Assembly (NCBI GenBank): GCA_965235115.1
Contig: OZ249436.1
Location: 10,852,001-10,912,000, forward strand
Source: Laetmonice hystrix
Taxonomy: Eukaryota
Reading direction: 5' to 3'
Length of the DNA: 60,000 nucleotides
Notes under the pieces: model-generated
Told to the model about the DNA's origin: nothing
Database searches by the model: none
The model's input: only the letters and a program-made list of their open reading frames with translations
Position numbers and translations under genes: made by a program
In this document: in pieces, positions 1,117 through 37,477 of the stretch
Layout of the letters: every line of letters begins with the position of its first letter
Numbering within the stretch: the stretch's first letter is position 1

Positions 1117-8935
<7,819 letters not shown>

Positions 8936-13569: not shown

Positions 13570-16500
13570 TCAATATTTTGGCTCAAGTATGCCACAATTG
13601 TAGTGTTCCTTAAATGCTGTTATTGGGCCCATGTAAAGATTATGGTCACGCAGTACCTTCTCTTCATGTTTCAAATGTCGTTGGATATGATTCCATGTCA
13701 TTGGGCGGGTAGGACCTTCTCGGGAGTGATCATACTGGGCCCGATCATAGGCTCGACCATGCGCGTTATGTATCCTGGTAACCGAGAAAACGTTACCTGT
13801 TCAGTACAACTATTACACATATGAAAATAGAAGTCATAAACAAATACTTTCAAAATTACAGTTACCATGTGCATTGAAAGTTATTGTTGATACCAATAGT
13901 AATTTCCTGTACCGGTAATCCAGTTATTCTGGCAGGCATCAGAGAACATTAACTACCTGCGGTATTGTTTTTCCATGCACAAAGATTATAAAATACCGAA
14001 ACAAAAGTAGCAAGGAAATGACATTTAATGTATCATTCATTGTTTCAAACAATGAACAACCACTTTGTCTCAAAATTTTAATACCAGTAACCTAAACTTG
14101 AAGCTACACTGCCTACTCTGCAAAGTGGTCCACATTGCAGCTCATATGTCCCCCACAAATGTTTGAAAACAGAGACTAAATTTAACCATTGCATTCATCT
14201 TTTTACCTTTATGATGGAACAATTCTTCATACCCCTTCTTTGATAGTTATTACTGCATAGGAGTCTTAGTTTATGTTTAAGTCTAAACCACAAGTAAGAT
14301 TATTTTTCCTACAAAACTGGAAAAAGTATGTCTTGTATCAGTATTTTAATGAAAGCTTTACAAAATTAGGTGTGACTAGACTTTGAAATGTTGTCGCCGT
14401 TTTGGCAGATCTCCCGGGTGGGTTTGGAAATTGTATACAGGAGGGTGCATGAGTTGTTGGACATGGTCAGGAAAGGAGTTATCAACACGTCGGTGCTTGA
14501 TGGGGTGGTCGTATCGGACGTTAGCAACAGGCCTGAAACATGGAGAACTCCAACTAAACCTACAGGCAACAAGCAGAAAAGCATGTAGTATAATTATTTC
14601 ACGTGTACCGAGATTGGCATCGAAAGTTCAGTAGGCCAGTAAGTTCAGTGCCAACTTATTAACAGGATAAGATGAATGAAGCAAACTGAAACAATTACCA
14701 GACCTTACACCAACTTTGGTATTAGTATGGCAGGTTCTACGCGTACCCATTGTTTGGTGGCCTCTTTGCGATACCAAGGATGGCGATACTGCCAAAACAC
14801 AAAGTTGCCGATTGCTTGTGGTGGACTGCCCCCATGAGGGCAAGCTACTATCAAGCATAGTTAACTGTGAAAGCCCTAGCCAAAGCTGAGTGGTGATTAA
14901 ATTAACATTTTGAAACATGTCGCCAAATGCTGTGGCAAAGCTGTGGCTAACACATCATGTGACATGGCTCATTGACTGGGTGCCGATGGTAGACACACAG
15001 TGCTGACACCTGGCGGAGATCACAAGAAATACTTGATTGACAGTTTAGCCAAAGTATTTCACAGTCCCAAGTTTGTAAGCTTGTCCACTGCACTTGGTTA
15101 CAATAATACAGTTATTAAAATAAACATTGCATTATCGAGTCAAGATATTACCGTACTCTAGGTTTTTTTTCATTAAAATAAATCTTTCTAAGCATATCTT
15201 TATACATCAGAAGGTTTTGTATCCAGAAGAACCACCCTGTTAAACTGGCCATTAACTCTCTTGTGTGCTTCATATTTTGATTCACTTGTATTTTTCCTCC
15301 TGTTGTTCCTCTGTTCATCACAAGTGTAATCACTATTATCAGTTCCTGGATACACAATTGCATACATTCTATCTACATGTGGTGTGTGGTCTTCTCGACC
15401 TCGATATCGATTTTTGAAGCCTTCCTCGTTCAGTCGAAACATTTCCAGTTTTTCCCTGCAAGGCCAGAAAGAATCATTTCTAACAGTTACCATATCTAAC
15501 TGGGTCCTTTTCCCCCCAATTATCTTATGACATTATGTTATAATATCTGAACCTACTGGCATTCTAGTTTTCCTCTCTACATTATGTGTTGTTATAACAT
15601 ACTGGTAAATTTTACATTTCCATGACTCAACATCACACAGACAAAATAATCAAAACTTTCTATGTGCAATTTTAGTTGCGTAAGAGGAATGGGGAGGGCT
15701 TAGACATGAAAGACAGACTGTGAGAAAGAAATGATGAATTTGTGGAACAAGATTTCAAGTCATCAGTGACGGTCTGCCACCATATGAGCCATGCCTATTG
15801 GTCATAAGACTGCAGAATTTGCAGTTCCACAGACAGTATGATCTCATGCAAACTTGTGTTTATGAATATGAGAATACAGAATATATTAAATTACAGATAG
15901 CTTTGCACAAAAAGAATCCTCAGGTTTTTTAACAATCAACCACTTAACAAAAATACACCTATACAGAATTGAAAAGACAGCACTTTTGGTAAAATGTGTT
16001 ACAAATTACAATTAATGGAGAACATGATTTATGCAAAGATATCTGGAAAATATATCATACACAACACAAATACATATAGGTAAAATATTTGAATGGGTCA
16101 TGACATCAAAAGCGTTAAGGTTAAAGACCGATCTACTATTTCATGCTCAGCATACCCCCCGGTATGCCATATGTGCCAACAAATTCATTGTACAATGAGA
16201 ATGGTGTGGATCTATGCTATACCACAGTAATCAAAATGTACGACTGATCAACTGCAAGCAATATGTAAACTTACATACGGGCAAGACAACATTAAATTGT
16301 CATAGTTATACCTGCCTATACTTCCACGGAATTGCTCAATCGTCATCTAAGAACTGGGGCGATGTGTCAAAAAGGTCACTGATATGGGTAGTTTTAATAT
16401 CATTGAAAACTGCATCTCTGAGTTGATCTGCACCAGGAAAATCAAAAGCTGGGGAAAGAGGAGGAACAGTGCCCTCAAGGACAGCGATGGGAGGAGTTTT

Positions 16501-18636
16501 GGTTCGCGAGAATGCCACCTGGTGGCCTACTGGCGAGTCAACTTCAACCCGGTCCTGATTTGGAAGAATGGGAGGAGAGGCAGAGGCCCTTGAGAGAGCA
16601 TTAGGATCGCCAAAGCTGGAACGACACACAAGAGAATTAAAAATTTTTTTTAGATTATTTCTATTATTATTAGTCATATTACACACATAAATTAGGAGAT
16701 TAAATTATCAAATTAGAAATACTTGTAAGACAAGCATATTAATTAAGCTATTAGATTTAGGAATCGTTCTGTCCCAGGGCTCAGTTTTAGTCAATTACAT
16801 TTCTTCACACAGATTTAAAATTCCCTTATCAAGACATTTTACGTAACAGCTTTTCAAGGGCTCTGAATTCATAAGGACCTTTAAGAAGCCATCATTTTGA
16901 GAGCTTTTCAAGGACCCGATAAACATGATATTGTAGTTACCATTATACAGCTAAAGTTTAAAAACATTTTTAGGTTTAGCTTGTGACAAAGCTTTTCACA
17001 CATCCTGATTTGCTGTTCTTAAAACCAGGCCTGGTGCAAAAATGCAGGCCAGTAAAAAACAGCTTGCCTCAGGCCTTGCTGTTTGACGGGCGCTTGCGCC
17101 CCTAAGCACCCGCAAAATCTGTTTTAGAAGCGCTATTTATCGCGCCCCTCAACTTCACTGACTGATGTGAATTTATTTGTTCCTCAGCCATGTCTGAGGC
17201 AACCTCAAAAACGCTCTCTGTCTCCCCCTTGTCCCCCAGTCATTAATGAGTCAATCATTTCCTAGACGGCTCCCAGGACCTCTTTAGCCTATGCCAAACC
17301 TTATAAACTACCCTGAGTTTACCTGGAAATACCCAAACGTGGGACAGGAACGATTTCTAGGGGAGTGATTTAGCTCTCCTCGGATAACTAAGGAGAGTGA
17401 TGGATCGCTCCCGTAAAGATTTCAAACGGCAAGCACTGTTGCCTATAGGCTAGATCAATGTTTTGTGGCCTAGGCCAGCCGTTTTTTTTAAAATGATCTT
17501 TCTAATCCAATTCCTCTAACCAATTCCCAGAGTAAGTATCCATGTAAGGGTCATCTGAGATGGACCTATAGGCTGGTCATATGAAGATAGTGGGCTATCT
17601 CTCAGAAACATGAAAAAGAATGAATTAAAGGCACGAAAGAAAAAACTTTTAATATGGACTCGCTCGCATTAAAACATTTAAGGCCTGTAACTAGTGTAAA
17701 ATGTGGCCCTTTTAACTTGTGACTTCACCAGAAATATCCCTCCTTATCCAGGCCTCAAATTAGAAGTTGAAAGGGGCACGGCAAAAACTGCCATCGATAC
17801 ATAAGAATCAACGTAAGATTTTTCCAGGGCACAGCGGGAAATTTACGATAGATGGAAAAGGCACGACAGCAAATGCTGTCGATGCCGTCGTGTAATTCAA
17901 GGCCTGCTTATCTATAGATTGGGTAATTCTAATCATGGGCTTGTCAACTTACCTTTTTTGTTCAGCAGCTAATGCAAATGTATCACTCATCTGCTCTTTT
18001 GTGCGCGCAGCATCACGGATGGCAGCCATGTTTGGTCCTTCATCATACATTGCACTCTCTACATCCTGAAAATACATTAAAATGAAGGTAGTGATTATTC
18101 TGCCGGCATATGAATTATGATACATCACATCAGGAGTGGCCGATTTTTTAAATTAATCACTTGCCACAGGACAAGTGGACTACAAAATTCCACTTGCCCC
18201 GCTCTGTAGGCCTAAAATATATGATAAATATGATCATTTAGACATTAATTTAGAGATTCTAGTTGGATGATAAAAATAACATCGTCATCGTCCAGAATTT
18301 AGGGGGGGGGCTGGGGCTGGAGCCCCCTTAGCCCCCCCCCCCCCCCCGGATCCGCCCAGCTCACCTAGCTCTGTGACTGTGGCTAGCCTAGAGAGATGGA
18401 GATTCCGTCTAGAGCTCACCCTGCTTGTAGTAAAATGGGCCCCCCTGCCGTGGTGGCTTGTTTATAAATTTCTGTCCGAGACTGGGCGATCGTCCTGGCC
18501 CTGGATTTTGGGAAAGCCAGGCTAAAAATTCTGTGTAACTTACGCGTTGTTGGTGCAGTTTCTGTTGTGCATTATGTTTGCGTTCCAATATTCTCTGCTT
18601 ACGCAGGGCTTCATTGTGCATTGCTGCATCAGCCAT
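13570..18636 (-). CDS. Uncharacterised small protein (~165 aa in the longest model) with alternative terminal exons
   Basis: Exons (minus) 18636-18544 (MADAAMHNEALRKQRILERKHNAQQKLHQQR), 18065-17953 (DVESAMYDEGPNMAAIRDAARTKEQMSDTFALAAEQK), 15455-15366 (REKLEMFRLNEEGFKNRYRGREDHTPHVDR) and 13774-13570 (MIHNAHGRAYDRAQYDHSREGP...CGILEPKY*). Splice sites are canonical and phases consistent. Alternative last exons at 16615-16336 and 14559-14376. Minus-strand AATAAA near 12032-12037. No family recognised. Confidence 0.7.
17749..17906. mobile_element. Short MITE with CAGGCCT TIRs and 6-bp TSD
   Basis: CAGGCCTCAAATTA...TAATTCAAGGCCTG flanked by CTTATC on both sides. Confidence 0.75.
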
Positions 18637-18759
18637 GACGAGATGTATACCGTAGATGTTTTTGACAAAGGAATGGACGTTGGAAACAAATCTATCCGTT
18701 TTCAAGCACCTGCCGAGCCACTGCTTTCACGGCTTCACTGGTTGTCAAGGGTTACCTAT

Positions 18760-19353
18760 CAGGACGCATGCGTGGACCGAATGATGGTGGTTTTCCCGCG
18801 GTTTCTGCCCATCAAACCAGTGTCCATCTCAAGTAAAAGTGGATGATAATTTTGATTTCTCTACTTTAAAGGTAAGAATGTTAACTAATAATTCTTGACA
18901 ACATTCGATAAAAATAAAAATAAATCTTTGAGAGATATTATTATATGGTACATAAGCGACCATCAGGCATCTTGGCCACCTACATCATCGTTAAAAATAA
19001 TAGGAAACTTTCACAAGTTATATTGTGTATGGAATAAAAAATAAAATTTGAAATATTCATTATTAAAATATCTTTCAACCTTATCAAATCAACCGGTTAT
19101 CGTTCTGCTTTTATTTTAGTAAAAGGTAATCCCAAGGCCTCTATTTCTAAGGGGTTCACACATTTCACACAACGGACAGGTTCTCATGCGTCGACAGCGA
19201 CGAAAGTGGACCAATACTGCGCAACGTGCATGTGCGGTGCAGATTGCAGTCACAGAATTCGTTAGTCTTAACCCGCATTAGTCTGCACTAATTCATTTTT
19301 CTAATGTCTTTCTAGTGTCTGTCCAAGCCGGAGTCCACCTAGTTTATTTTGAG
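18760..19353. promoter_or_regulatory. Probable bidirectional promoter and non-coding first exon of G3BP
   Basis: Locally CpG-rich region between the minus-strand gene start (ATG 18636) and a strong donor TTGAG|GTAAGT at 19353. The next G3BP acceptor is at 21683, just before the ATG. Confidence 0.6.
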
Positions 19354-20465
19354 GTAAGTTATGACAAGTCTGTTTGCGTAAATAAGCTTGATTTTCTACT
19401 TTTCAGTCGAAGCATGGCCGGCTTTCGGCTGCGATTCATTTTAGCCCGAAGAAAGACCTTCCGGATTCATGGCCGTGTGCTCCACACGGATATCATATCT
19501 TTCTTTATTCCAATTTTGGAACCAGTCGGGCCAATTTTGTTCCAGGTGCTTCCTACCAGATGTTTTAAAAAGCCATCGGAACAGAAAGATCAGCCAAAGA
19601 TTTTGTTTCTGTTGCGATGGTGGAGGGCCTCCTCCACTCGGGAACGGGCATGTTCATTGTTGACGTTCCTGACCTGGTTCGGGTTTATCCGAACATCGAG
19701 AGTCGCCGCAAATTCAGACTCTACGCCGAGTGAAAGTACTACTAGATTCTAGGGCCTAGGCCTCTCTGGATGTATAAATTAGAATTGGCACCTAATCTTA
19801 TTACTCTTGTTGTGTTTGAGTTCAAAGTGAAGCTCAGACAAATATGAAAACGCCGATTGCCCGCATGCTACCCTTCCTCGGTTTCGGTTTTCTATAATCT
19901 CATTCATTTGGCTAGCCGCCCCACATGGCTCGAGACGGCGGTGTCTCGGTAACCTACTCGGTTTACGCGGTGTGCACGGAAGGGCCTACATCGGTCTCGC
20001 GAACGCTACGACGTAATTGATATATCTGTGCATCTTTGGCAAGAGAATGATGCACTATTTCGAGTAAAATCTATATTTTTTGTCATGGTTTTGGTTTAGA
20101 TAAGTGCATCCGGAACTGGCGGCAGTAGCCTGAGTGGTACCGCCTGAGTAGGCTCGTCCCTTATCATTTCCATTTCAATTGCCAACTTCTCGAACAGGCA
20201 CTATAAGTCTATATTGTGTAGATCTAAAATAGAAAGGTAACTTTGGAAAATAAATAAAACTGCAAAATAATGTGAGCACTTAAATGTCTTGATAAAGAAT
20301 ATGGAAATTTAAACGGTATTTGCCAGGTTTATCCAAGCTGACCAAAGCCAGTATAGAGAAACAAATCTTGGCGCAAGCTTAGACTTGATACTTTATAGCT
20401 GGCCTCCTCATATGGTAGGCTTCTGCTTGCTGAAAATTTTCTGTAGCCAGAATTGCTAAACATTA

Positions 20466-20885
20466 CAGGGCTCGAATTTTAAATTTTTTAAAACAAGGCA
20501 AGTGTTGCCTTGGGTCCAAGCCGAAATTTTAGGGCACCAAGGGAAGTTTTAGAGGCACCAAACTTGACCAAAGCATTCTATTGCTGTGGACATATAATCA
20601 GGGCACTACGGCGAGTCAGGGCATCCGCCAGAGGGGGGACGGGGGGGATTTATCCCCCCCATGATTGGGACATGAGGGGGATATCCCCCCCATAAATCTG
20701 CAGAGCAGTGTTTTTTTTAAGCTATTCTCGCTCTGAGAGGCCAGGAAAACGCATCTCCGGAGTTCATGAAAAAAAAATTTCTGGGGGAGGGTCCCCCCAT
20801 TAATTATTTTCTGGCGGAAACCCTGCGAGTGGGAAGGGCAACCATGGCACTTGCCGTCGGTGCCGTGGCTTTATTCGAGCCCCAG
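20466..20885. mobile_element. MITE (CAGGGCTCGAA TIR) containing a nested MITE at 20617-20825
   Basis: Outer TIRs CAGGGCTCGAAT / ATTCGAGCCC. Inner element CAGGGCATCCGCCAGA...TCTGGCGGAAACCCTG is flanked by the 5-bp duplication CGAGT. Confidence 0.75.
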
Positions 20886-21706
20886 GATTGCCAAGTCCGT
20901 TGCCACATCACAATTCTGTAGGTCTTCTTGTTGATATTTAATGAGCATCCAAATTTTTCACGATATTTTTGCGGGTTGCCATTGTGGCGAGAGAGCATAC
21001 TTTTTATCTTGAAATTGAATTCCATTGCAGGCCTGAGAATGAGGGAAATTTGCTTAACCCATTTTCCATTCACCTGAAAAGTGACAACATGATAACCCTT
21101 CGTTCCGGTTACCTGAAAATTTTCCTAGGGAACCTAAAGGTTACCTCATGGGTTACACAGAATTTTAATTTATAAACCATAATATTCACTTGTGTTCCAT
21201 GTTATATGTCCATATTGTATGTAGGGGCTCGTAACATTGTTTGTGGAATTAGGGTTTCTGATTATAGGCCTTTTTTATTTTGTGCTACTGTTTGCTACTG
21301 TATTCAGAATTCAACTGGCTAGATGTAGGCTCTGGCAGTGGCAAACGAACACTGGACTAAAGTGACTGCCAACTCACATTGTCCCAAGGGCCTGCCCCAT
21401 TCACCCCCACCCATTCTCCAGGCCTGAGATTAAGGGAAATTTGCGTAACCCATTTTTCGTTCACTTTTTTTTAAACTTTAGGTAACCAAAAGACGAACGA
21501 AACTCAGGCTTGGATTGTCACTTTACATTGTACATGTATTGTAGTTTTTGTCAAACTAAATAGAATCTTAATTGAGTAAAGCAAAAGGGAATTGGAAAAA
21601 GAAATACACTGGACAATGCTCTGTAGCAGGAACTGATTTTGAGATTGTTTACTAATTATGTAATGCTCATTTGTGAATTTCAGATTGCCCACAAGCTATC
21701 GCTGTC

Positions 21707-24700
21707 ATGGTCATGGAACAGTCACATCAGCTGACCAGCGAACAAGCACCCTCCCCACAAGGTGTTGGGCGGGAGTTTGTCAGGCAGTATTATACTGTCA
21801 TGAATGAGGTGCCAATGCACCTCCATCGGTAAGTATTGGGCATTAAGTCATGCAGATAGTTGTAAACTACATAATAGGCAGTGCTTGGTGTTTGAGATAG
21901 ACTACTTATCATTTTCCCAGGTTTATCCATTGGGTGCTAAATTATGTAAATTATTACTATTTTTAGTTTTTTCAGTTGAAGGTCTGGATTTTATTGACAT
22001 ATACCGTTAAAGACATAATGTCTGTCTATTAAATTGTGGAAAGTTGTAATAAAATTGAACATGCGGTATGCAAAGTTAAAGGATGCAGTGCACTAAGTGT
22101 TATAAGAGCATCTTCCCACAGGCTATCTCCAAGGCCTATTATCTGAAGGGGCCATTTGGTGTAAAGAATTGCATCCATAATTTTTTCTGTATTAGAACCA
22201 TTTTCTTGTAAATATATAATCAATAAATACCAGTTAATTAAGGCACTAGAGTGTTGCCAGAAGTTGGTTTCCATGTGCTGCAGGAATAAGGGGCTCACGA
22301 TTTATTATTTGATTTGAAAATTTAGTGGTAGAGTGAAGTTGGCCTTGCAATGATGTTGTAATTTGCGTCTGATAGTAAGTATGGTGATGGTTGCCTACCA
22401 TCATATAGCCATCTTGCTGAACTGACGAGACTTGTGTCTCTGAGCAAGCAATACATTTTAAAAGATTTAATAAGGAAAATCAAAAAATATTCAAGAGCTC
22501 TACACTTTGCATTTTGTCTAAATGCGATAACCAGATTGTAACTTAAGTTTATGATCATAAATTTGTGCACTCTAACTTTAAATGTGACAATCGAATCTCA
22601 AATAAGACACCAGACAGACTACCAGATTTTCTACCCCTTGGGGATCGGCTTCTTTTTGGCCCTTTCTCTTTAAAAAAAGAAGAAATTCTCACCACCATGT
22701 GCTGTAGTAATATACCTGGGCTCCAGTTGCTACTGTTTGCCATTGTTGCCAGTTTAGACAAAAAATATTTCTTTGGCGACTCGGACCAAAGGACCAGTTG
22801 GCGAATAATTTGGCGCCCAGTTTTTTTTAGATATATTTTTTTTATCATCCTATCCATTTGGTGCCAAAAATGGCTCCTACCTTTTTTTGGACTTTGTAAA
22901 CCGACTTTCGAAAGAAATTATATGCATATTTGTTTCCGTGGGAAAATCCTTAATTTCGATCCCTGAATATAGTGAATGTTGATAACAGTACATGTATAGT
23001 TTAGTGGTAGAGTGAGTTGGGTCTTGCAATGATGTTGTAATTTGCGTCTGATAGTAAGACTGGTGATGGTTGCCTTCCATCATAAAGCCAACTTGCTGAA
23101 CTGACGAAATTTGTGTCTCTGAGCAAGCAATAGTTTTAGAAAAGTTCTAGGTAATTGCATAAAACTACACTTTGCATTTGCATATTTATACCAGTTGCAA
23201 AGTGATATCAGGAATGTGGGTTGAAGTCATACCTCTGCTGTCAACATTTAAATGTGAATACAATTCAATCCTTAAATATTATTAACATTCCAGTTTCCAT
23301 GACCTAATCAGGGTTCTCACCAGAAATCTAGCGTCGTGCCTACTAGTGATCAAACCAAGGGAAAACCCTGGTTAGGGCTACAGCCAGTACAGGAGGGGCA
23401 AAGCCCCCTCCCCCTCCCAAGCTCTGGTAATTTAGGCTATTTTAGAGCTCTTGTAATCTAGATAGTCAGATGAGAAAGGTTTGCTAACCTGGACAGTAAA
23501 CGAGCGACATTTTACTGGTATTCCTGTGGGTTCTGTTGAATTTAGACAAGTTTTTGCTGCTGCGCTTGTCAAGAGACAGTATAGTGTCCTCAAAGACAGC
23601 GTAGCAGCCTAAATGCACAGCGTAGCGGCCGCTACATAGATGCAGAAAAAGGATGTCGAGAACACTACGAATGGGGCAGGGTGGGGGTGGGAGTTTCTTT
23701 CATCCAGTCTTTTTAGGGGGGAGAATTCTGATGTAGCGACCATTCTTGAAGGCATGCAAGCATAAGTTTGTGCAGCATGGTCCACCAACAGTAAAGTATT
23801 TTCCATTTTTTTCCATGATTTAATTTATTTCAACAGGTTAAGTAAAATATACTAGTAGTAGTAGCCCTCAAATGACAAAAATGGTCTTGCAGTGATGTTA
23901 TAATTTGCGTCTGAAAAGGGATTCTGGTGATGGTTGCCTACCATCACGAAGCCAGGTCGCTGAACTGACGAGAATTGTGTATCTGAGCAAGCACGTTAGG
24001 TTTTTTTTGTAAAGGAAAACCAAAAAGGTAACCTGAAAGCCTGATTGATCAGAGCTCACGAATATTTCTTTCTGACAGTAGGGGTAGGCCGTGATGTAAC
24101 CTGAATGTGGACAAGACTGTTGGAGTAGGAGGCCACCACCTGTAGAACTTTTCAGAGAAACTTAAAAGGCATGACATGCTGTCGACATCAAATGATGTCG
24201 ACATAGAACACGGCAAATTCAATCCACATGCAAAAAATGATGATGACCAGTTACCTGCTCAGGGTTTCCGCCAGAAAAAAATTAGGGTACGGACCAGAGG
24301 AGGGGTTAGGGTTCGCCTAACCCTAACTGCTGTTACAAATATGTGAATTAATCAAATAAAGACTGCATATCTGTACAACGTTATATTTGATTCCTTCAAG
24401 TTGCCCAAGGCATCAGCAGGAGGTTTTTATCACTTCATGGAAAAAACGATTTGGAGGGTACGGATCCGTACCATGGAAATATTTTAGGGTACCCATTTTA
24501 CCTGCTGGTGGATACCCTGCTGCTGTAATTGGGAAATGGCTTGCCAAACTGATGAGACAGTTGTGTTTCAACAAGGCATATTCTTTGACTAAGATGGGTT
24601 TGGCTTTTTTTGTTTACCCAGAGCACACTCTCACATGGGCACAGTGAGCAAGACACCATAACTAATGATATATGACGGAAGTTTATTGTCATCACTCAGA

Positions 24701-27700
24701 TATGACATCACAGTACTTTTGGAACTGTTCTAGACTTAAACAATAGGGCCTCATTTCTAACGTCACAATAACGCCTTTTACCTGCCTGTGGCACTGCCAG
24801 GGGACACAGTGGACACTGTCAAAGCATTTTCAGCAACAGGCTGCTCTAGAAATCCTTTTAATTTCAGAAACGATATTTGCAGGTTTCTAAAGATCAACAT
24901 TCCACTTCCTGTGGTTAAAATAAGTAAAAGAAAGGAAGAAAAAAATTATGTAAATTTGAGTGAAATTCTCCCTTGCTCACCACACCGTGAGCATCCTCCT
25001 TAGCTGTCTCAAGTCTCACGGAAATTTTGTGAGCAAATCTCGCGAAAAGTGCTGCTCACAAAAACAAAAAAATGGCGTGCTGTGCTCAGCCTGGGTCAGC
25101 TCACGTAAATGCTGCTCAGCTCGCGAAAAGTGCTGCTCAGGTCACAAAAAATAAACAAAAAACTGGGTCCTGATCCATGGGAACCCTGTTAGCACCTGAT
25201 TCAGGTTTTTTTTTGGTATGATCATTACAAAAAGTTTTACCACTGGCTCATATTGATTATATATAATTGACAGATTCTACAGTAAGCACTCCAGCTTTGT
25301 GCATGGTGGCGTGGAGAAGCCTGGAGAGGAGCAGCCACCTGCTGTGGGTCAGGAGGTAAGTTGTTGGCTTTCTGCGGCAACAAACTTTTATCTTCGCATG
25401 ATACCATGATTTTGCACATGGTAACAAGATTCTGGTTGGTGTAACTTAGAACAATATCAATAAATCGCAAGAAAATTTGTTGAAACCCTTAGTTTTCATA
25501 TAACACTTATTTAGTAAACACCATTTGAATAAGAGTAACATTCTTGTAGCCATGCTGGTGAAATGTAAAGTTCTTTAAAATGTAAGCCATGAAAGTAAAC
25601 TTTTATGAGTGAGTTTATGTGCATCACCTTTCTGCCTCAAACAGAAAGAATGTTACAAGTACTCAAGTCTATTTTGGTTTTGATTTTGTAGCAAATCCAC
25701 AAAAAGATTTGTTCCCTGAACTTCAAAGATTGTCGTGCCAAGATACGTCAGGTAGACTGCCAGGCTACTGTAGGTAATGCAGTTCTTGTCCAGGTAAATT
25801 CAACACCAGTTTTTTATACTTTTTCACACCACTCAGGGATCTCTCTAGGGTAGAAATAAAGTGCTCACCTTTGGCGCGCCCAAGAGTATAATGGCAATCG
25901 ATGCATCTAATTTCATGGCCAGGGGTTCGGGGGCCCTGAAAACTGGGGGGGTAAAGATGATCTGCCACTGAATTTCCTGTATTTTCCTATGGTTAAAGCC
26001 GGGGAATGTTCATTTTCTTGGTTAAATAAAAGGATGAAAAAAATAACGACGATAATTGATTTTCAAGACTAATTTTGAGAGGGTGTCACTTGCGCTGAGT
26101 AGCATGTTGCTGAAACTGAAAGTGAGCTGCAAAATACAAGCAGACTGGCGATAATTTTTAGAAGCGTGTTCGGCGCAACACGCAAAAGCACCTTAGTGAG
26201 GTCCCTGACACTAATTGGCAGATTGAAATGTAAAATTAAATGAACCAAAGTTGGTAAATTTCTAGCAGTATACCTACTGATGATCCTTAAAGTACAAAGG
26301 ATAAAGAATCATAAATGCATGATAATGCTATCTCCCCACATCCTGATATTTATATTCTAAATAAAGAATTAGACTTTTTTTCTTTGCATGGAAAAGTTCT
26401 GATCAAATAGTTAACAATATCCAGAAAAATGTTTCTTTATTGATATGTTGAAAAAAAAATCTTCTCAGTATTGGACCTGAGCTTAACCCAATTTAATGCC
26501 ATTTGTTTAAGGTTACGGGAGAGTTGTCGAATGCTGGCCAGCCAATGCGCCGCTTCATGCAGACATTTGTGCTGGTACCGCAGGCTGCCAAGCAGTACTA
26601 TGTACACAATGACATCTTTCGCTACCAGGATGAAGTTTTCCATGACAATGATACGGACACTGAACCCCAGGAGGAGTCTGTTGGTATGTATCAGCCTTTG
26701 TCCGTGGCACTCCAATAATGCATGAAATCATTATCATTTAGTCTTACATCCTATTTTTGAGAATGAAACATTTTTGTAAAACATAGAGGAAGTGCAGCTG
26801 ATTGGTTAATATACACTGTATAACAAAAGATTACAATATTAGATCAATTATATAACATTTTCTGAATCAAATATGTCATCCAGTCCAAAGTTGTAAATAA
26901 TTGACCAATCAATTGTACTTCAATTTTAAAGTTGAAATGCATTGCTTGTAGTGTTTGGTGAATTTTATATTAGAAAAATTACATGGCTATTTGAAAGTTT
27001 AAGTACCTAAGATAGATGTGGTAAAGAAAAAGTGTCTGTATGGTACCGTGCCTGCTGTTGTGATTTTGAAATCTTGGACTGCAGTGTATTTATAAAGCAT
27101 GACATTTTCATAATAGAGATGTAGTATGTCTTGTGTAGTTGATATATAACTGCAGTGTGTGGGTGGCGGTGACTACAGCAGCAATAGAGGCATCATTGCT
27201 GCAATGTTTTGTGATTAACAGCAAGTTGTGTGTGTAACCCCCCATGTGCCTGTCCTCTTTTTCAGACTCTGACCTGTCTGTTGCAGACTCGGATCTGGAC
27301 GATGCTGTAGAGACCAGCACCGGACAGGAAAGTGCCCAGAGCCCCACTGTATCAAATCCTTACTTTGAGGCTCCTCAGGCAACACCCATGAGGTATGTGT
27401 TTCAGCACGATGCCAGCGGGTAAGTTTTCTACAAACTAATGTGGGACTGTCAGCAAGTCTCGCCATTCACGCTATCGATGGAATAACATGGCTCATGCAC
27501 ACACCTGACATACTGTGGTGGTGAAACACCCATTTCATTCTTACTTGAATTCTGGTAGGAAAGTTCTATGCTCTCCAACTAAATTTAACACGTCAAATAT
27601 AAAACAATATTTAAGTAAGATTTTTTTGCTGCACACCTGAGATCTTTTCTAACCCTTTTCAGACACATATATGCAGTCACATGGTGTCGGGCTAGACCCA

Positions 27701-30700
27701 GAAAAATTCCAAAAGTAAACTTTTTCTAAAGAATAATTGACTAAGGAGCCTGCAAGTCGATAAATGCATAACCTGACTTTGACAGTCCTTACAAAGAGTA
27801 TGTGCAGAAGAAGATAGTTGCATTGGTGCCTAGCAAACAGTTGCAGTTCATGGTATGCCTTTAATTTTGAAACTGACGTCCAGATTTAGAAGAAGATAAC
27901 GAAAAATCTATTAAAATTAGGTAGTGGATTGAGAGTAGAAAAATAACTGAAAAAAAGTCTTGTAGTTCTTCTTGCATAACATTTCATGATATGACTGCAG
28001 ATGAATGTTCAACTTTGGAGTTTCATGAATGAAGGATTCTGGTCGGATAGTGAATTGTTACTGTGAAAAATCTAACCAAAAGTAATGGTCACTTGATTAA
28101 TTTTACTTTTAAGTTAATCTTTTTCCATAATTCTTTTAATGTTCGTTAGAAAAACACTAAACAAATTAACCTAGTTTTGAAGTATGTTAATGTATGATTT
28201 GCAGATTTTAAGTTTGGTTTGAGTATCATGTTAACCTATCTTAAGCTATGGTATCAGCAAGTATAAAGAGGGAATATCGATCTTTTCAATGTTTTTGTCA
28301 TTTCTAAGTTAAATACCTGTAATAGTGCCTGTTTCTTTGAGCCAGTCTGACCTCAAAGGGCTGAAAAAGCCATTGATCAAGGCTTGACACTCGCATTTAT
28401 AAAATTGTTGGATTGGTTTGTCTCAGTAAGGACTTTTGTTTTAGTCGAATGAACCCATTTGTTGTTGTTGCAGTAATGGCACAGCACATGTTGACGAGCG
28501 TGTGGAGTCTCCTCCCCCAAAACCAGTTGAAGAGCCTCCCAAGGTAGAGGAGCCACCGCCTACAGAGGTGTTTGAACAGAAAGTAGTGGAAAAAATTCCT
28601 GAACCGGAGCCTGCACCTGCTCCTACAGGTATGTAGAGGAATCTAAATTGAAATCAAAGTCATTGTTGTGTCCAGTTTAAAAAAAAGCCCCTTAACTCTC
28701 TTAACATCCACAGACACTGATATCTGTGACCATGTGTACTTAAAAGAATACAGATACTGATGTTATAAATAGGATAAGGGAATGATGAGATTTTCACTTG
28801 GAATGTTTATGTGTACATAGCAACATGGTTATAAGGTGCTCTTCTGTTGATAATTTAAGGGCCTCCTGTCCGGGTCAGCTTTGCCGCTATGTTGAGCAAA
28901 CCGGCATCTGGTGGCGTGGCACAACCTGCCGGGCCACCACCCGCTGCGCCAAAGCCAGTCTCGGGACCTGTGGTGAAGATTGATGTGAAGAGCCCTGAAA
29001 GTACAGCGCCAGCTACCGGACCGCAGCCGCAGAGAACACCACGGTCAGTTTTCAGAAGTTACCTTTGTCAGTTTTTCCATACTTTCAGCCTCCTCAGTTA
29101 GGTCAGCAAGTAATTCATATGTTCTGGCATATTATTTTTTGGTAATATGCTTTGAGCTCAGAGTGCAGGCACTGGAAAAGTGAGCACATTAAAGAGGGTT
29201 CCAGACAGTAAGTCCATTTTTATTGTCCAGGTTAATAGCTGAGGCACTGTCAAATTTCAGACTCGCAGAAGAAGGCCTTCCCCAAAGGTAAGGCCCGCTG
29301 AATGAATGCCTAGATAAGAGTTCACGAAGTTCTGCCAAGAAACTAACAAGCTTCACTATTCTGTTACAGTGATTACTAAAAACCAGTGTCGGGCTACCAT
29401 ACATTTCATTAGCTTCTCAGTTAACCATCCTTGTTCCATGTTTCTGCATCACAGTTAAAAATGGCTGACCTGTACTCTACCGTAAGGTGTAGTGTTATTG
29501 ATAACATGATCCAGTTGGTTGGGTTTATCAAACCTGACCTTTTGTATCGTTCCATTAAAATATACCCACATCCTAATATTCGTGTAACAGTGAGCAAGAG
29601 TTTAACTCTATCTCCACAGCCTGATGAAGGGCTGAATGAATATAGGGCACTACAGGGGTTGGCCTAGATCTAGATCAATGGTTTACCGGTCATTGCTATG
29701 TACCGCTATAGTAGATGAGGATAGCAAGTTTGTGACACCAGAGTGTTGGATCAGCTCTGTCATTGGGAGGGCCAAATGAAGGCACCTTGGGGGTGGGTGG
29801 GGTGGGTGGGTGGGTTTAATACACAAAAATTTCTCATATTTTCCTTCAACCTGACTGGCATCTCTGATGATCATGGCAGTAATCCACAGCTCCCCAATGT
29901 CCTGTCATCACGAGAGTGATAACTCTTGTGAAACAACTTGGCCATGTGCAGGATGCCCCCTCGAACTCGATGTTAACTAAGGGAGTAAAAGTATGATTTT
30001 AAAAGTTAAGCCTCTAGAGAAGCATTATTTACCCATAGATACAGGTATCAAACACAGTATGGAACTTTTTATCCACCTTAATCTAGTTTTTAAGTGTCCC
30101 ACTCCACCAACTCCTGACCTATAGTCATAAAAGGACTCTCGCATTTTAAAATTTATGAGAGGGGACGGGAGCAAGAGCAATTTCGCTTCCATCTATTTGC
30201 AGGGTCTGCATTTTTATCAGAACTGAAGGAAAAGACATTCTGACAAAATTAGCAAATGCTTCCTGTAATAGAATAAGTTTCTGACATGCTCTATTAGTAT
30301 TGTAGGCCTACCTATCCTATATCTGTTTCGAACAAACTGCATTTCTTTGCCTCTCTTGCATCTTGATCTGTTTTTTTTTATACACCTGCTTCATATAACA
30401 ATACTTCAGTTCTGCCCAGGTAACACTCTCAATGAAGTTCACATTTACTGTAAAATTTTGTTTTATGTTCATCGCAAAGTTATCTCAATATATCCAATGT
30501 AGGATTAGACATGTTCCGAATAAAAACTTGCCTTTGATGCACAGACCAGATGGACCCAATTGAACTTTCCAGTCAAAGACCATAAACAGAGATTTGATTG
30601 CCTTTCAGACCAGCACGTGAGCGTACAACTCGCGAGTCGCGGGATGGAAGCCGTAACCCAGGTGACGGAGAAGATTCAAGACGACCTCGTCACCCAGACA

Positions 30701-32665
30701 GCCACCAGGTGTTTGTTGGCAACCTTCCTCACCAGATGACTGATGACGACCTTCGGTCATTCTTTGAAGGTATACCTAAACTGTCTCTCAATATGGCAGG
30801 GTTCCCACGGTCATGAAAAGTCATGGAAAATGAAATTTGTTTTTTTCGGGCCTGGAAAAGTCATGGAAAATAGAAAAACGAGGGAGAGTCATGGAAAGGT
30901 CATGGAATTTGAAATTTCCTTTGAACCACATTTCAGTTTCTGCATGTTAGGTCCACGACTTACTATATAGGGGCCAATTCTGGGATTTTAATGTATTTTG
31001 TTACTTTTATCCGGAATTGGTTTGGAAAAGTCATGGAGAAGTCATGAAATTTCAGTATAGCCAACCTGTGGGAACCCTGTATGGGTCCGAGCATTATCAG
31101 AACATGGTGAAGATTTAGTCTTGAGTGGACAATAATTTGACACTCTTTAGTGAAAAAAGGGTCCGGATTTTTAGTAATGATCTGGAATTTCGGAATTGTA
31201 AAGCAACAACTTATTTTTAAGCCGAATTTAAAACTGATATAAGTAATGAATGCTCTGTGAAAGATCAACATACAGGCATGGCCGATTCTTATTGACCGAT
31301 GCCTGGGGCAAGTTGATAGAATGGTCAGGCTAGACAATAGCCCAAGGGCATGTGGATGTCGGAGCCGGGCAAGTGGAATTTTGTAATCCACTTGTCCTGT
31401 GGCAAGTGATCAATTTGAAAAATCGTTCACCCTTGACATATTCAGTGGATAGGAGTAGATTTATTGCACCAAGCCTTAAGCAGAGAATGGCTAAGTCGGG
31501 CTTTGTTAAACAAAATGTGACTATATAAGTGCAAAATATAAACGTTTTCATACTAGCTAACATATTATGTTGTATTTTTCTTACAGTCTTTGGCAAGGTA
31601 GTGGATCTGCGAATCAACAAGAAGACGGCACTTAATCCAAATATACCTGTATGTATAACTTGTAGTGTCTGTTAAGTTTATAACCAGAGGGGGGAAGATT
31701 AATCATAGCTGAATCTCAAAGGACCCAAAATGTCCCCTATTTATATCAGATGGGGCCGCACTATGCTGGCAACCTAGTATTGACCATGCATTCTCACAGA
31801 GGCTATGAAAGAGTGGCCCATACCGAATGTAATATACTGTTGTTAAATTTATGCAAACTATTCTACCAGTCCTCACCCCCACGCTAAAAGAAAAGAACCT
31901 GAAAAAGATCAGCCCATACATTTGTATTTGATAGAAAATATAAGATTGTGACAGAAATGCGTCAGGAGAGACTAGAGCAGACCAACCGCAGTGTGCCGGA
32001 AATTCTTTACAAATGTTTACAGATGATGCTTCTGAAAACGATTTTAAGGTATGATAGAAGTCTACATCTGTTAATAATTCTATATATTTTAATTCGTTTT
32101 TTAATTGTTGCCTTTTCATTGCAGAATTACGGTTTCATTGTGTTTGATGATTACAAAACTGTTCAACGTGTGCTTGGGCACAAAGGGGTAAATATCTTTG
32201 AAAACATAACCTTTTGATATTATCAAATCCTGAAAGAAAAAAGACTCAGATTCAAAGAAGCTTAGATTCAAAGAAGCTGTGTTTTTATTTGGACCTGGAT
32301 GTAAATGTAAAATATTTTTCCTTATAATCGTCAGCTTTTGAGTTTATTTAGTTGCCCTGTGTCTTGGTGCCCTACCAATTTGTACTGAGCATGATCAATG
32401 CCTTTTTCAGGGTTTTACACTGAAAGGCGGACATCGGTTGAATGTTGAGGAGAAAAAGCAGCGAGGAGAGAGTGGCCGGCCGGGAAGTGGTACCCGTGGG
32501 GGTGGGCGTGGTGGCAGCACTGGCCCAGGCCGTGGTGGACCCCGTGGCGGTGGGCGCGGTGGTCCAGGTGGCCCAAGACCAGACAACAGAGAGCGGTCTG
32601 GAGACCGACCAGCTCGTGGAGGTGGAGGTGGCGATAGGGGAGGGTTCTCCGGGCCACGCCGCTAA
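21707..32665 (+). CDS. G3BP: Ras GTPase-activating protein-binding protein G3BP (G3BP1/2, Rasputin ortholog)
   Basis: Exons 21707-21828, 25274-25355, 25692-25793, 26512-26683, 27266(or 27287)-27392, 28474-28628, 28860-29043, [29261-29287 optional], 30609-30769, 31587-31648, 32125-32187, 32411-32665. Domains: NTF2-like ([19 protein letters not shown]...RRFMQTFVL...[12 protein letters not shown]), acidic/Pro-rich linker, RRM ([23 protein letters not shown]), RGG tail. AATAAA near 34040. Confidence 0.96.
22344..22448 (+). ncRNA. SNORD16: C/D-box snoRNA U16 (SNORD16) homolog, copy 1
   Basis: Terminal stem CTTGC/GCAAG, box C ATGATGT, guide GTAATTTGCG complementary to conserved 18S CGCAAAUUAC, D' CTGA, internal TGATGG-TTGCCTA-CCATCA hairpin, C'-like TGACGA, box D CTGA. 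Matches the recalled vertebrate U16 start TGCAATGATGTCGTAATTTGCGTC and end CTGAGCA. Confidence 0.9.
23023..23127 (+). ncRNA. SNORD16: C/D-box snoRNA U16 (SNORD16) homolog, copy 2
   Basis: Same boxes, guide and terminal stem as copy 1; the flanks are also duplicated. Confidence 0.9.
23886..23991 (+). ncRNA. SNORD16: C/D-box snoRNA U16 (SNORD16) homolog, copy 3 (more diverged)
   Basis: CTTGC-AGTGATGT...TAATTTGCGTCTGA...GTGATGG-TTGCCTA-CCATCAC...CTGACGA...CTGA-GCAAG. Confidence 0.88.
24260..24519. mobile_element. MITE with CAGGGT TIRs and 5-bp TSD
   Basis: CAGGGTTTCCGCCAG...CTGGTGGATACCCTG flanked by CTGCT; same TIR family as the element at 20617-20825. Confidence 0.8.
30797..31079. mobile_element. 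MITE with CAGGGTTCCCAC TIRs and 5-bp TSD
   Basis: Perfect 12-bp TIR, flanked by TATGG, with internal AGTCATGGAA repeats. Confidence 0.85.
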
Positions 32666-35419
32666 ACTTGTTTCTTTTGGTGCTTTGTGAAAATGTATGA
32701 AAGTATGCAATTCTGAGGATTGGATAAGATACAACAAAACGATGATGGCAGATGCCCAGCGGAGGAAATTCCACCACATGTCAACGTCTTGTACTGTAAC
32801 ACAGGTGCAATTTATGGTTCAATCAGCTGTGATTCTAGCATGTATGTTGACAAATTATTGGAGGCTTCTTCCTGGCTTAACAAAAGTGTATTATACATCG
32901 TGATACTGAGCTTTAAAATATTGTATATTAGCCAACAAACATTGAAGCTCCAGTGGAACAAGACTCAATATCATTCCTCGATTAGGAATTAACAACCAAT
33001 GTAACCAATACCTTTTATACACGTCTAATGTACATATAAACACAAGAGCTGAACGGGTCGCAAATTGGTTTACATTGGTCGTAAATTTTGTGTAGGAATA
33101 TACGAGTAGTTAATTAAATTATTGCTGTTTGTTTTTGTTTACCCCATCTGTTGGATACATACACAGAATTGCATATTTTCGGGAACGACGTACAGACTTT
33201 TTGTAAGTGTATTTGTGTTCAGAATGTGACAAGAGCAACTGGATAATTTGGCTCAAAGAAGTACCATCAGTGGAACGACGATGACAGGGTGGCACCTCAC
33301 CTTCCCTACTGTCATCACCTTCGCCTCGTGTTGGCATGGCAACTGTGGCATCAAAATGGGCTCAGTGTGGACTCGGACTTCTACAGACACTAAGCATGTG
33401 CTGGCTTACATGTGCAGCACGTGTTTCCCGGCAGACAGACCTTAGAAAAAAAAAGACATGTTCATATGTGGTCGAAAGGCGACGTACATGGAACGTGTCC
33501 TTGTGACAGCCGTCACAGGGGACATCGACTACAGATGATGAAGAGACAAAAATATATATCAGGACTATGCAAGCTCGACAACGTGGCTTGTTTTATAAAT
33601 AAAATTATGAGAAACTGTGCGGTTAGATGTATTCGCATCAAGATGACAGCTTCATCATCCAGTTCCGATACTAACCTGAACCGTCTCCAAATGCACGGAT
33701 TCTGTATGACTAGGTTGAGACTGGACTTCATGGATACATACCACATTCACATGAATCAATCGAATCGGTCACTACACTTTTTAAGCAGCTTCAGAGAGTC
33801 GTTTTCTTAGGAACCAGTGGCTCTCATTGGTTAGTGATAGTGGAGTTGGACAGAGAACTTGTGTACAAGGCATGGCACGTCTGTGGCCCCTCTGAGTTAA
33901 ACTCTACCCTCCTACGGTACCAAACTGTATCTTGCAATCAGAGTAAGAGGATGCTCCTCCAAATGTCAGTAACCTGGGAAGATCTTGCGTGCCTGTCGTC
34001 CGTCAATCGTAACTTTGATGGAATTCAATCATGATATTTAATAAAAGAAGTTTTATATTTTAGATGCTCAGAGGATTATGGCAATATTTTTGACAGTATT
34101 TTTCTTAAGATACTTCCAGGTACTGTCTGGCCCTTATAGAGATTGTCATTGTGTTTCAAGGATCTCAAAAATTGGGAAAGGTGGATCACTGGAACTTTGG
34201 CCTTTTTGTACAGTACTTTGAAAGTATTATAACTTTTAGAAAAAGTCTTATGTACAAGCTAGTCTCTGCCAGTGTTCCAGGTTCCATCCATTTTCTAAAA
34301 TTTGGGGGAGTAGTCGCTCGATTGTTGCATGAGATAAGGGTTCATAGCGTATTTCTGCCCAGTTTAGTTCTCTCAAGGATATGTCGATCTCTAGAATGCT
34401 TAGTTGTGTCTTCACCCTGACAAAAGAACGGACCTGTGTTATGGTGCCTACAAACTGTTACCCTCCCAGATATCACCGGCTGGTTGTAGCTGCAAGGACG
34501 TGTATTCTCTGACTGCACATGTTTTCAAGAGAAATAATAAATATATAAAAGAAAAAAAATGAAAAAAAATCAGGAAAACTCTTCCGAAAAACATAAATGG
34601 TGATGTCCTTGTCCATGTCTTTAGTTTGTGGCCCTTTTTATGACTGTAATGCTGCAGTTCTCGAATGGAAATTGAGAGGGTGGGGAGGGAAATTCGATTC
34701 TCAAGAAATGTGAGGATTTCTTTATAGGATGAGCATAAATAGTTTGTGTCCATATAATACTGTTATATTAAGCCTTCTGCTGCCCACTGTCTGTAAGAAA
34801 TTAGTAACGCCTCTAACAATAGGACGTGGTCTACCATCATTGGGGTGTTTTTATATTTAATGCCCCCTTCCCAGGGACACGAAGGACATCGAATGAAAAG
34901 ATTGGTGGACAGGGTAGGAATATCGTGTTTTCCCATTTAACTACATGCACGTGTTCAGCAATATACGGCATAGGCCTAGCGCCTACTGCCATTTTTTACC
35001 GAATTTTTAAAGTAAGGCATTACTAGTCTTTTAATATAGAATAAAGAAATTATCCTTATCGTATATGATGGGTTGTCTAATTCTATGTAAAGGCCTCAAT
35101 CGGCTAGTACAATTAGGTCTAGGTATGTGAGGAGGATCCTCCTGTTGGGGTGTTTTACTGGTGACGTGCCCGCCATCTAGCGGATTTAAATTGAACTAGG
35201 CCTACTTTTTGATAGGCCATAGATCTCCTACACATCTATGGATAGGCCCAGTAGGCCTATCTCAGCTTAGCCTTTCCCTTTGTTGAAACGTCCACTACTT
35301 GAAAATCGAGAATGTTATGGGTCTTTTAAGCTGTATTCATCTGTGAATCAACGTTGCCGTGTTGCAGCGGCTTTAGATCAACGATTTCCACTTTCTCAAA
35401 GATTTCCAAGTTCAGTCAT

Positions 35420-36302: not shown

Positions 36303-37477
36303 CAGGATTTTTTGCAGCGGGGGTGAGTGGGCAAAAGGTGCCCGTGCCGAGGGGGATGGGCTCTCTGACTGAAAATGTTTAGGAATAGGCCTAGGGCCAT
36401 AGATAGATGCTATTGCGTATTGGCTGGCTTCTCAGCCGAAAACTGAAGTGAAGAGTTTTCGGTGCAGACCTTTTGGTCAAAATTAATGTATTAATCAGTG
36501 GGGCAACCAGGGGGGCTTGGCCCCCCTTATATATATATTCCTTTTTTCTATGAAGATGCATTAGTACCATCAAATGAAGTCATGATGCGTGGCGAGCGTA
36601 GCGAGGCCAAAAATTTTTTAGGTGGGCCCCACCCCCTTACCAAAATCCTGGATCCCCGACTGATTAATGCATGTTTATTGGAAAGGGGGGAAAATCCTGG
36701 AAGTAATCTTCATACCCCTTGTCAGATAAAGTTAGCGAGCCTGGTTATGAGCCTAAATGGGGCCATTTCGGTTCACCTGAATTTTTGGGTAATCCAAACT
36801 TTTTCGGGTTCGGGTTAAGTGGAACTAAGTGTATAGGGCCTTGATCTAAGATTAACCTACAGCTGCTTAGAACTACCATATAAAGATTAGGTATTGGAGG
36901 AATGATTTATCTCGGTTGATTAAGTGCAGCACGTGTTCATGTCCAGGATATCACAAGATGACAGGTGACCATGAGGGTCAATTGAAGCTGTCACAAGATA
37001 GAAGTATCAATACCCAGAATTGTGTGCTTGCCTGGTTAACATAGCAGAGCAGCAAAGTATACATACATACCGGTCCTTTCCATGAAGTCAATGGTTCTTG
37101 AGTACATGTTTAGCTGGGGTAGGTCTGTGTCTGTTATACTTTGCCATGTGGTGGAGTTATGTCAGCCCGGGCTCTATGTGCTTGTGATGAGGCCAAAGTC
37201 TGTTCACAAACGATTTCTTTTAGTGCAGTGTCATGCCCCATGTGCACTACACTGATAGATCAAGCAATGGTGTTTATATACTGCATTTATTTTTTTCAGG
37301 ATCTGTTGTGATTGAAGTCATGTGATTAGTGAAGGGACCATGCACCAGTCTACCCTCCCTGATTACAGTCTGTAGGAGGCCATCACTTACCAACCAAGAC
37401 AACCATCTATCCATCCATCTCCCCTTCCATCCATCTATCCGTCCATACATACAGACTCACACACAGACACTCACAGG

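Follow-up and report, generated by a model that had tools for sequence, protein, structure and literature searches.

In animals, the usual view is that each box C/D snoRNA matures from an intron of its own, close to the branch point. Animals are described as having mainly one snoRNA per intron, with intronic clusters as an accepted class beside this arrangement (PMC11028025). In Drosophila, H/ACA genes cluster in introns and C/D genes do not (PMC3089462, PMC1821038), and the C/D snoRNAs of both Drosophila and silkworm have been reported one per intron (PMC3089462). A distance of about 70 nt from the 3' splice site is reported as optimal (PMC1821038), and a terminal stem can make up for a position remote from the branch point (PMC10234308). 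Same-intron pairs have been counted in human H9 cells, where they comprise 48 snoRNAs (PMC4234469). The family of interest here, U16/SNORD16, is hosted in humans by RPL4 (PMC7359415), which agrees with the vertebrate host named by the first-pass annotation of this DNA; human U16 is the guide for 18S A484, and 18S pairing beyond the guide has been described for it (PMC5612246). Studies of U16 processing in Xenopus led to XendoU, an endonuclease that releases intronic snoRNAs (PMC10557570, PMC11961692). Under the constrained-drift model, snoRNAs move among broadly expressed hosts (PMC3511168), a view with further support in PMC6984369 and PMC3412847, and RNA-binding and processing factors form a normal host class in Drosophila (PMC11014333).

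Against this background, a cmscan of the whole window (the 60-kb stretch of DNA analysed here) returned three matches to SNORD16 (RF00138, clan CL00046) and to no other family. All lie on the plus strand and cover model positions 1-100: 22346-22446, 23025-23125 and 23888-23989, with E values of 7.6e-14 to 4.7e-10 and scores well above the 45-bit gathering score. A permissive Rfam scan of 19000-34500 revealed no further snoRNA family even at E up to 1. The covariance model thus bears out the earlier assignment to U16, and the elements drawn at the time (boxes C, D', C' and D and a 5-bp terminal stem within spans of about 105 nt) are present in all three copies, at these positions:

22344..22448, plus strand: U16/SNORD16 copy 1 (Rfam 71.6 bits; boxes, duplex; fold z -2.7)
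22344-48 paired with 22444-48, plus strand: terminal stem of copy 1
22350-56, 22369-72, 22422-28 and 22440-43, plus strand: boxes C, D', C' and D of copy 1
22358-68, plus strand: guide of copy 1
22390-99, plus strand: extra 18S-pairing element of copy 1
23023..23127, plus strand: U16/SNORD16 copy 2 (Rfam 76.0 bits; fold z -2.4)
23029-35, 23048-51, 23101-07 and 23119-22, plus strand: boxes C, D', C' and D of copy 2
23069-78, plus strand: extra 18S-pairing element of copy 2, with 10 uninterrupted pairs to 18S
23886..23991, plus strand: U16/SNORD16 copy 3, the most diverged (Rfam 61.7 bits; fold z -3.2)
23892-98, 23911-14, 23965-71 and 23983-86, plus strand: boxes C, D', C' and D of copy 3
23933-42, plus strand: extra 18S-pairing element of copy 3

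Like human SNORD16, the copies fill the full model and share its boxes (box C with the final U of the Rfam consensus), D' guide, target and internal loop with extra 18S pairing. Unlike it, they reside in G3BP rather than RPL4, lie three between the same coding exons and 1.3-2.8 kb from the 3' splice site, have a perfect D' box and place the extra pairing four bases along the 18S. Their guides form duplexes of 11, 11 and 10 pairs (copies 1, 2 and 3) with the 18S of other eukaryotes, the last being one pair shorter because copy 3 has an A in place of G at the 5' end of its guide. The fifth position from box D' falls on the equivalent of A484, found at 432, 440, 432, 432, 440 and 420 in six fetched 18S genes, which Rfam confirmed as SSU_rRNA_eukarya and which belong to eukaryotes other than the window's organism. 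These loci were fetched with a pattern that includes the guide's complement and was built on a primer in PMC12345457; outside that pattern, the 16 bases upstream are identical in 46 of 52 loci. The target proposed from the letters of the window is retained. We regard identity and target as practically certain, and the copies likely direct 2'-O-methylation at the A484 equivalent. For 18S, a second guide at box D was considered and rejected, given that its best duplex has 5-7 pairs and the region is variable across 30 copies. About 350 stored stretches match the 18S pattern, and six prokaryote genome records among them (L053, L057, L062, L069, L087 and L090) hold full-length eukaryotic 18S genes, presumably as contamination.

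The auxiliary contact with 18S sits four bases upstream of its usual register in the window copies. Copy 2 forms it with 10 pairs (-19.4 kcal/mol, bettered by 0 of 162 18S windows), and copies 1 and 3 with one mismatch (-14.9 kcal/mol, bettered by 3 of 162). Two hairpin pairs are changed on both sides, and the hairpin is kept. The shift is relative to 24 of 27 other animal U16 copies; L023a shares it, and pairing is poor in the two copies of L032. In an alignment of 30 animal U16 copies, 92.8% of cells are paired and double changes occur at 11 of 14 pairs, figures that are inflated by related rows; no shuffle out of 500 matched this pairing, and slid controls pair at 22-56%. A conserved guide, covarying stems and a moved auxiliary contact together make the pattern expected of selection on a working guide, which would leave just such changes, and on these sequence features the copies look like functional local tandem duplicates.

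The host proposed earlier, G3BP, is borne out by the reconstructed gene, whose 11 coding exons, separated by GT..AG introns, give an open frame of 487 aa by DNA and protein continuity. The product has an NTF2 domain, an acidic and proline-rich middle, an RRM and an RGG tail (Pfam NTF2 and RRM_1 matched), its best matches are named G3BP, and over 433 columns it shares 58% identity with the Platynereis G3BP. A tree of 25 rows groups it with Platynereis (support 97/92), which points to an annelid-like animal. The gene and its U16-bearing intron are laid out as follows:

19300..19353, plus strand: predicted non-coding first exon of G3BP, its start provisional, with a consensus donor at 19354
21684..21828, plus strand: first coding exon of G3BP (ATG 21707; NTF2 positions 1-22, below the cut-off alone)
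21829..25273, plus strand: host intron, 3445 nt, GT..AG, phase 2, predicted from DNA and protein continuity
25274-25355, 25692-25793, 26512-26683, 27287-27392 and 28474-28628, plus strand: G3BP coding exons 2-6
28860-29043, 30609-30769, 31587-31648, 32125-32187 and 32411-32665, plus strand: G3BP coding exons 7-11
23412..23612, strand unassigned: high-copy repeat with a strong hairpin (-36.3 kcal/mol), between copies 2 and 3
24216..25220, strand unassigned: high-copy repeats on the stretch from copy 3 to the 3' splice site (1,600-46,000 in summed contig depth)

A pyrimidine word at 19307-19313 is the sole match, in the 200 nt before the first donor, to the TCT/5'TOP initiator typical of snoRNA hosts, and it is a weak one. 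Codons run without a gap across the intron within the NTF2 domain (...LHR/FYS...), and the flanking exons are codon-contiguous against Platynereis G3BP, so that no coding exon is missing between the copies and all three lie between the same two coding exons, as the multi-copy cluster described at first reading had it. On this predicted structure, "single intron" is an accurate term for the protein-coding splice form. From the ends of copies 1, 2 and 3 to the 3' splice site there are 2825, 2146 and 1282 nt, distances due in part to high-copy repeats; the one at 23412-23612 reaches a summed contig depth above 12,000, against about 25-70 in unique stretches. A 23-nt inverted repeat (83%, 22212-22234 and 25242-25264) would pair the region upstream of copy 1 with the branch-point region and would enclose all three copies. 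Around G3BP, Pfam identifies an SH2-domain gene upstream (8134-8409, plus strand) and an MFS transporter gene downstream (37376-42339, plus strand), and a possible minus-strand gene lies head to head with it near 16300-19100.

How unusual is this host? One pattern scan of metagenome contigs gave 48 U16-pattern loci, many from the same or close species; Rfam, run on 40 of them, found SNORD16 in 29. Flanking exons place 21 of the 48 in RPS23, as confirmed by Pfam, 10 in a two-RRM hnRNP-like gene, 3 in RPL6 and 1 in RPL12, the last three names being assigned from the translations. Four loci have a U16 copy and no assigned exon, and nine match the pattern only, with neither a full-length copy nor a host exon, and were dropped from the host counts. 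G3BP was the host in none of the 48. Nine G3BP proteins searched by tblastn against these loci gave weak RRM-region matches at five, all of them hnRNP-like, and no orthologous G3BP intron. In two loci (L020 11668-11706, L028 11667-11705), about 3.8 kb separate RPS23 from a downstream exon of the hnRNP-like host, a layout in which the two U16 hosts may be neighbours in those animals. The RPL6 and RPL12 loci (L013, L014, L025 and L032) have one U16-like copy per intron, and in L013 the distance from the copy to the following exon is about 80 nt in both cases, in keeping with the classic rule. The first-pass annotation was right that the host differs from RPL4 but overstated the point, given that U16 occupies at least four further hosts and host mobility is published. 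We therefore consider the switch to G3BP ordinary. Finding U16 in RPL4, RPS23, the hnRNP-like gene, RPL6, RPL12 and G3BP is the free movement that constrained drift describes (PMC3511168). A term search of PMC13736004 met none of G3BP, SNORD16 and annelid. Our literature search met no report of G3BP as a snoRNA host; supplementary snoRNA tables could hold cases.

Whether the intron is also undivided at the RNA level is a separate matter. If a minor splice form included non-coding or poison exons, or zero-length (recursive) ones, each copy would sit in an intron of its own and the standard lariat route would be open. One per intron is, after all, the main rule in animals (PMC11028025, PMC1821038). 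Three candidate elements in the intron bear on this:

21976..22065, plus strand: candidate stop-containing (poison) exon upstream of copy 1 (splice score 21.0; in-frame stop)
23009..23017, plus strand: consensus-type donor 11 nt before copy 2 (7/9 consensus matches, background density)
23817..23842, plus strand: AG/GT at 23836/23837, 55 nt before box C of copy 3, a weak candidate zero-length exon (acceptor 5.6 bits, donor 6/9)

Under a splice model trained on the G3BP gene, the candidate poison exon outscores every one of the 10 real internal exons (11.3-19.7) and ranks first among 15 intron stretches. It suggests unannotated splicing in the host intron and could, through NMD, uncouple snoRNA output from G3BP protein, but it does not separate the U16 copies. 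Between copies 1 and 2, the donor at 23012 and an acceptor at 22830 (5.7 bits, real acceptors spanning 1.5-11.2) could delimit an exon, and between copies 2 and 3 there are AG/GT sites at 23150 and 23836. The best pseudo-exons in the two spacers reach 8.4 and 9.3, lower than any of the 10 real exons and near the bottom of the 15 stretches, which favours an undivided intron; the same model under-scored the consensus donor at 23012, so these low scores overstate the case. Donor-like sites occur at background level, with one in 573 nt of the first spacer and four in 757 nt of the second, where control introns have 1.9 per kb. The 23012 donor has no equivalent at the corresponding position upstream of copy 1, and just 11 nt separate it from the stem of copy 2. 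As for recursive splicing, the first spacer has no AG/GT site, those in the second are weak, and the sites are not conserved in relatives. Taken together, hidden splicing seems to us unlikely, if still a serious contender.

Relatives offer a parallel to the undivided intron. Seven distinct RPS23 introns are spanned from exon to exon, and three have two U16 copies, the other four having one. The exons to either side correspond to Pfam positions 23-62 and 63-109, and as they abut at 62/63 there is no coding exon between the members of a pair. Such pairs occur in four lineages (L008, L019, L022 and L010+L027), the fourth being represented by overlapping contigs without the downstream exon. Among lineages with differences at 16-24 of 74 third codon positions, the first copy and the second each retain flanks of their own. 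A U-rich block with an acceptor-like site stands about 80 nt before the second copy and is 62-67% conserved, other flanks being at 40-65%. This block, too, speaks for hidden splicing, for it may be a hidden exon, which would remove the parallel; an AG/GT site, in turn, occupies the aligned place before the second copy in only two of the four lineages. Intronic clusters in Drosophila (H/ACA) and rice likewise hold several snoRNAs in one host intron (PMC11028025), whereas the window has box C/D genes in an animal, with spacers of 0.6-0.8 kb. Reports of same-intron C/D arrays in annelids or other invertebrates did not surface in the literature we searched; supplementary tables could hold cases. 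The triplet is thus uncommon, but of a known kind.

In a tree of 30 animal U16 copies, the three from the window group as one clade (support 100/100). Copies 1 and 2 are 93% identical, and copy 3 is 84% and 83% identical to them. The spacers have only pieces of 14-22 nt in common, for the most part those of copies 1 and 2, a pattern that suggests an older duplication giving rise to copy 3 and a newer one giving rise to copies 1 and 2. An ancestral U16 would thus have entered the G3BP intron, duplicated once (copy 3 versus 1/2) and then again (1 versus 2). In contigs from three runs of one sample, possibly the same source as the window, each copy continues into a flank of its own, so a single locus has not been assembled in triplicate, although no piece spans the whole cluster. 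Recent duplication raises the question of redundancy: a single copy, or one per transcript, might be productive while the others decay or are homogenised by gene conversion. The closeness of copies 1 and 2 and their shared flank pieces would suit this, as would the longer branch and shorter guide of copy 3, and only about a third of annotated vertebrate snoRNAs are expressed (PMC10234308). Copy 3, however, is 16-17% diverged with unalignable flanks and has every box, the stem and each target-positioning base unbroken, and both members of the RPS23 pair persist in four lineages. The alleles among those listed also fall outside the copies, in 10 of 10 cases on the contig across copy 1, where the 82% flank makes the observation a weak one. 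We judge such redundancy to be highly improbable.

How might three guides leave one intron? In our leading reading, to which we give an even chance, one undivided intron would hold three intact tandem U16 genes, be trimmed from both ends and have its spacers cut or degraded, freeing guides of about 105 nt for A484. The genes would likely be co-transcribed with G3BP, and each copy, far from the branch point, would use its own terminal stem to take up the core proteins. Once the intron has been spliced out and debranched, exonucleases would trim inwards from both ends, and the unprotected spacers would be cut or chewed through, an EndoU-type cut being the nearest precedent. The resemblance to Xenopus lies in the family and in splicing-independent cutting around U16 (PMC10557570, PMC11961692). 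Xenopus U16 is single in its intron, whereas the window has three. Against our reading stand the 1.3-2.8 kb that separate the copies from the 3' splice site, compared with an optimum of about 70 nt, and the extended stems, which are modest (-7.8 to -10.9 kcal/mol). No conserved cleavage structure was found in the spacers; RNase III-type stems were rejected, considering that the sole strong hairpin lies in the repeat and that two of three control introns also beat all 12 shuffles.

The same lack of a cleavage element would suit a different outcome, in which exonucleases halt where copy 1 begins and where copy 3 ends and leave a stable, uncapped, non-polyadenylated sno-lncRNA of about 1.65 kb, or sub-forms of 0.78 and 0.97 kb, with or without monomers. 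Two snoRNAs in one intron are the stated prerequisite, C/D ends included (PMC4234469, PMC11028025), and all three copies have intact ends. The Prader-Willi (PWS) SNORD116 forms, LNC-SNO49AB and mouse RPL13A SNORD33/34 likewise have at least two snoRNAs per intron, as would the predicted coding splice form in the window; the mammalian cases often arise by alternative splicing, whereas the layout predicted here seems constitutive. The H9 cells with 48 same-intron paired snoRNAs, however, yielded seven detected sno-lncRNAs (PMC4234469). Moreover, the spacers are unconserved and carry a high-copy repeat, and a monomer fully accounts for the rRNA-guiding features on which selection is focused. A sno-lncRNA as the main product is, in our view, quite improbable. 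The first-pass annotation had offered endonucleolytic cleavage or unseen exons; both are possible routes, and the list omits the sno-lncRNA as well as release of whichever copy has assembled its proteins.

Release from the host would be unnecessary if each copy had its own promoter, for instance for Pol III, with the intron merely its location. A run of at least four T follows all three copies within 18 nt (background 15%, relatives 6 of 44), and words resembling the A box precede copies 1 and 2. Copy 3 has no such word, copies 1 and 2 are not independent, and every copy with an identified host lies on the sense strand of that host. Pol III boxes and a tRNA-snoRNA dicistron lack support, the copies having no B box in the right order and the window no tRNA. 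Independent promoters strike us as extremely improbable. Under co-transcription within one intron, G3BP would be simply a broadly expressed carrier. The regulatory coupling to G3BP suggested at first reading is unsupported: any intronic snoRNA needs transcription of its host, and snoRNA and host levels are mostly uncorrelated (PMC11028025). Nor does anything in the present analysis support regulation that would connect stress granules with rRNA methylation.

To a snoRNA family already known to be mobile, the locus adds G3BP as a new host and a same-intron triplet, and it offers a case of a guide RNA that moves its auxiliary rRNA contact while keeping the hairpin. If the intron is undivided, a triplet 1.3-2.8 kb from the 3' end would directly test how same-intron C/D copies are resolved, and such a test would separate an endonuclease from competition during assembly and from a sno-lncRNA. 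A broader reading, which we hold to be distinctly unlikely, is that annelid-type animals have true C/D arrays in constitutive introns (three in G3BP; two in RPS23, in other animals), resolved through U16-capped sno-lncRNAs or a dedicated endonuclease. If true, U16-capped sno-lncRNAs would be, as far as our literature search went, the first found outside vertebrates, and an endonuclease would bring to C/D clusters a processing step thought to be absent in animals.
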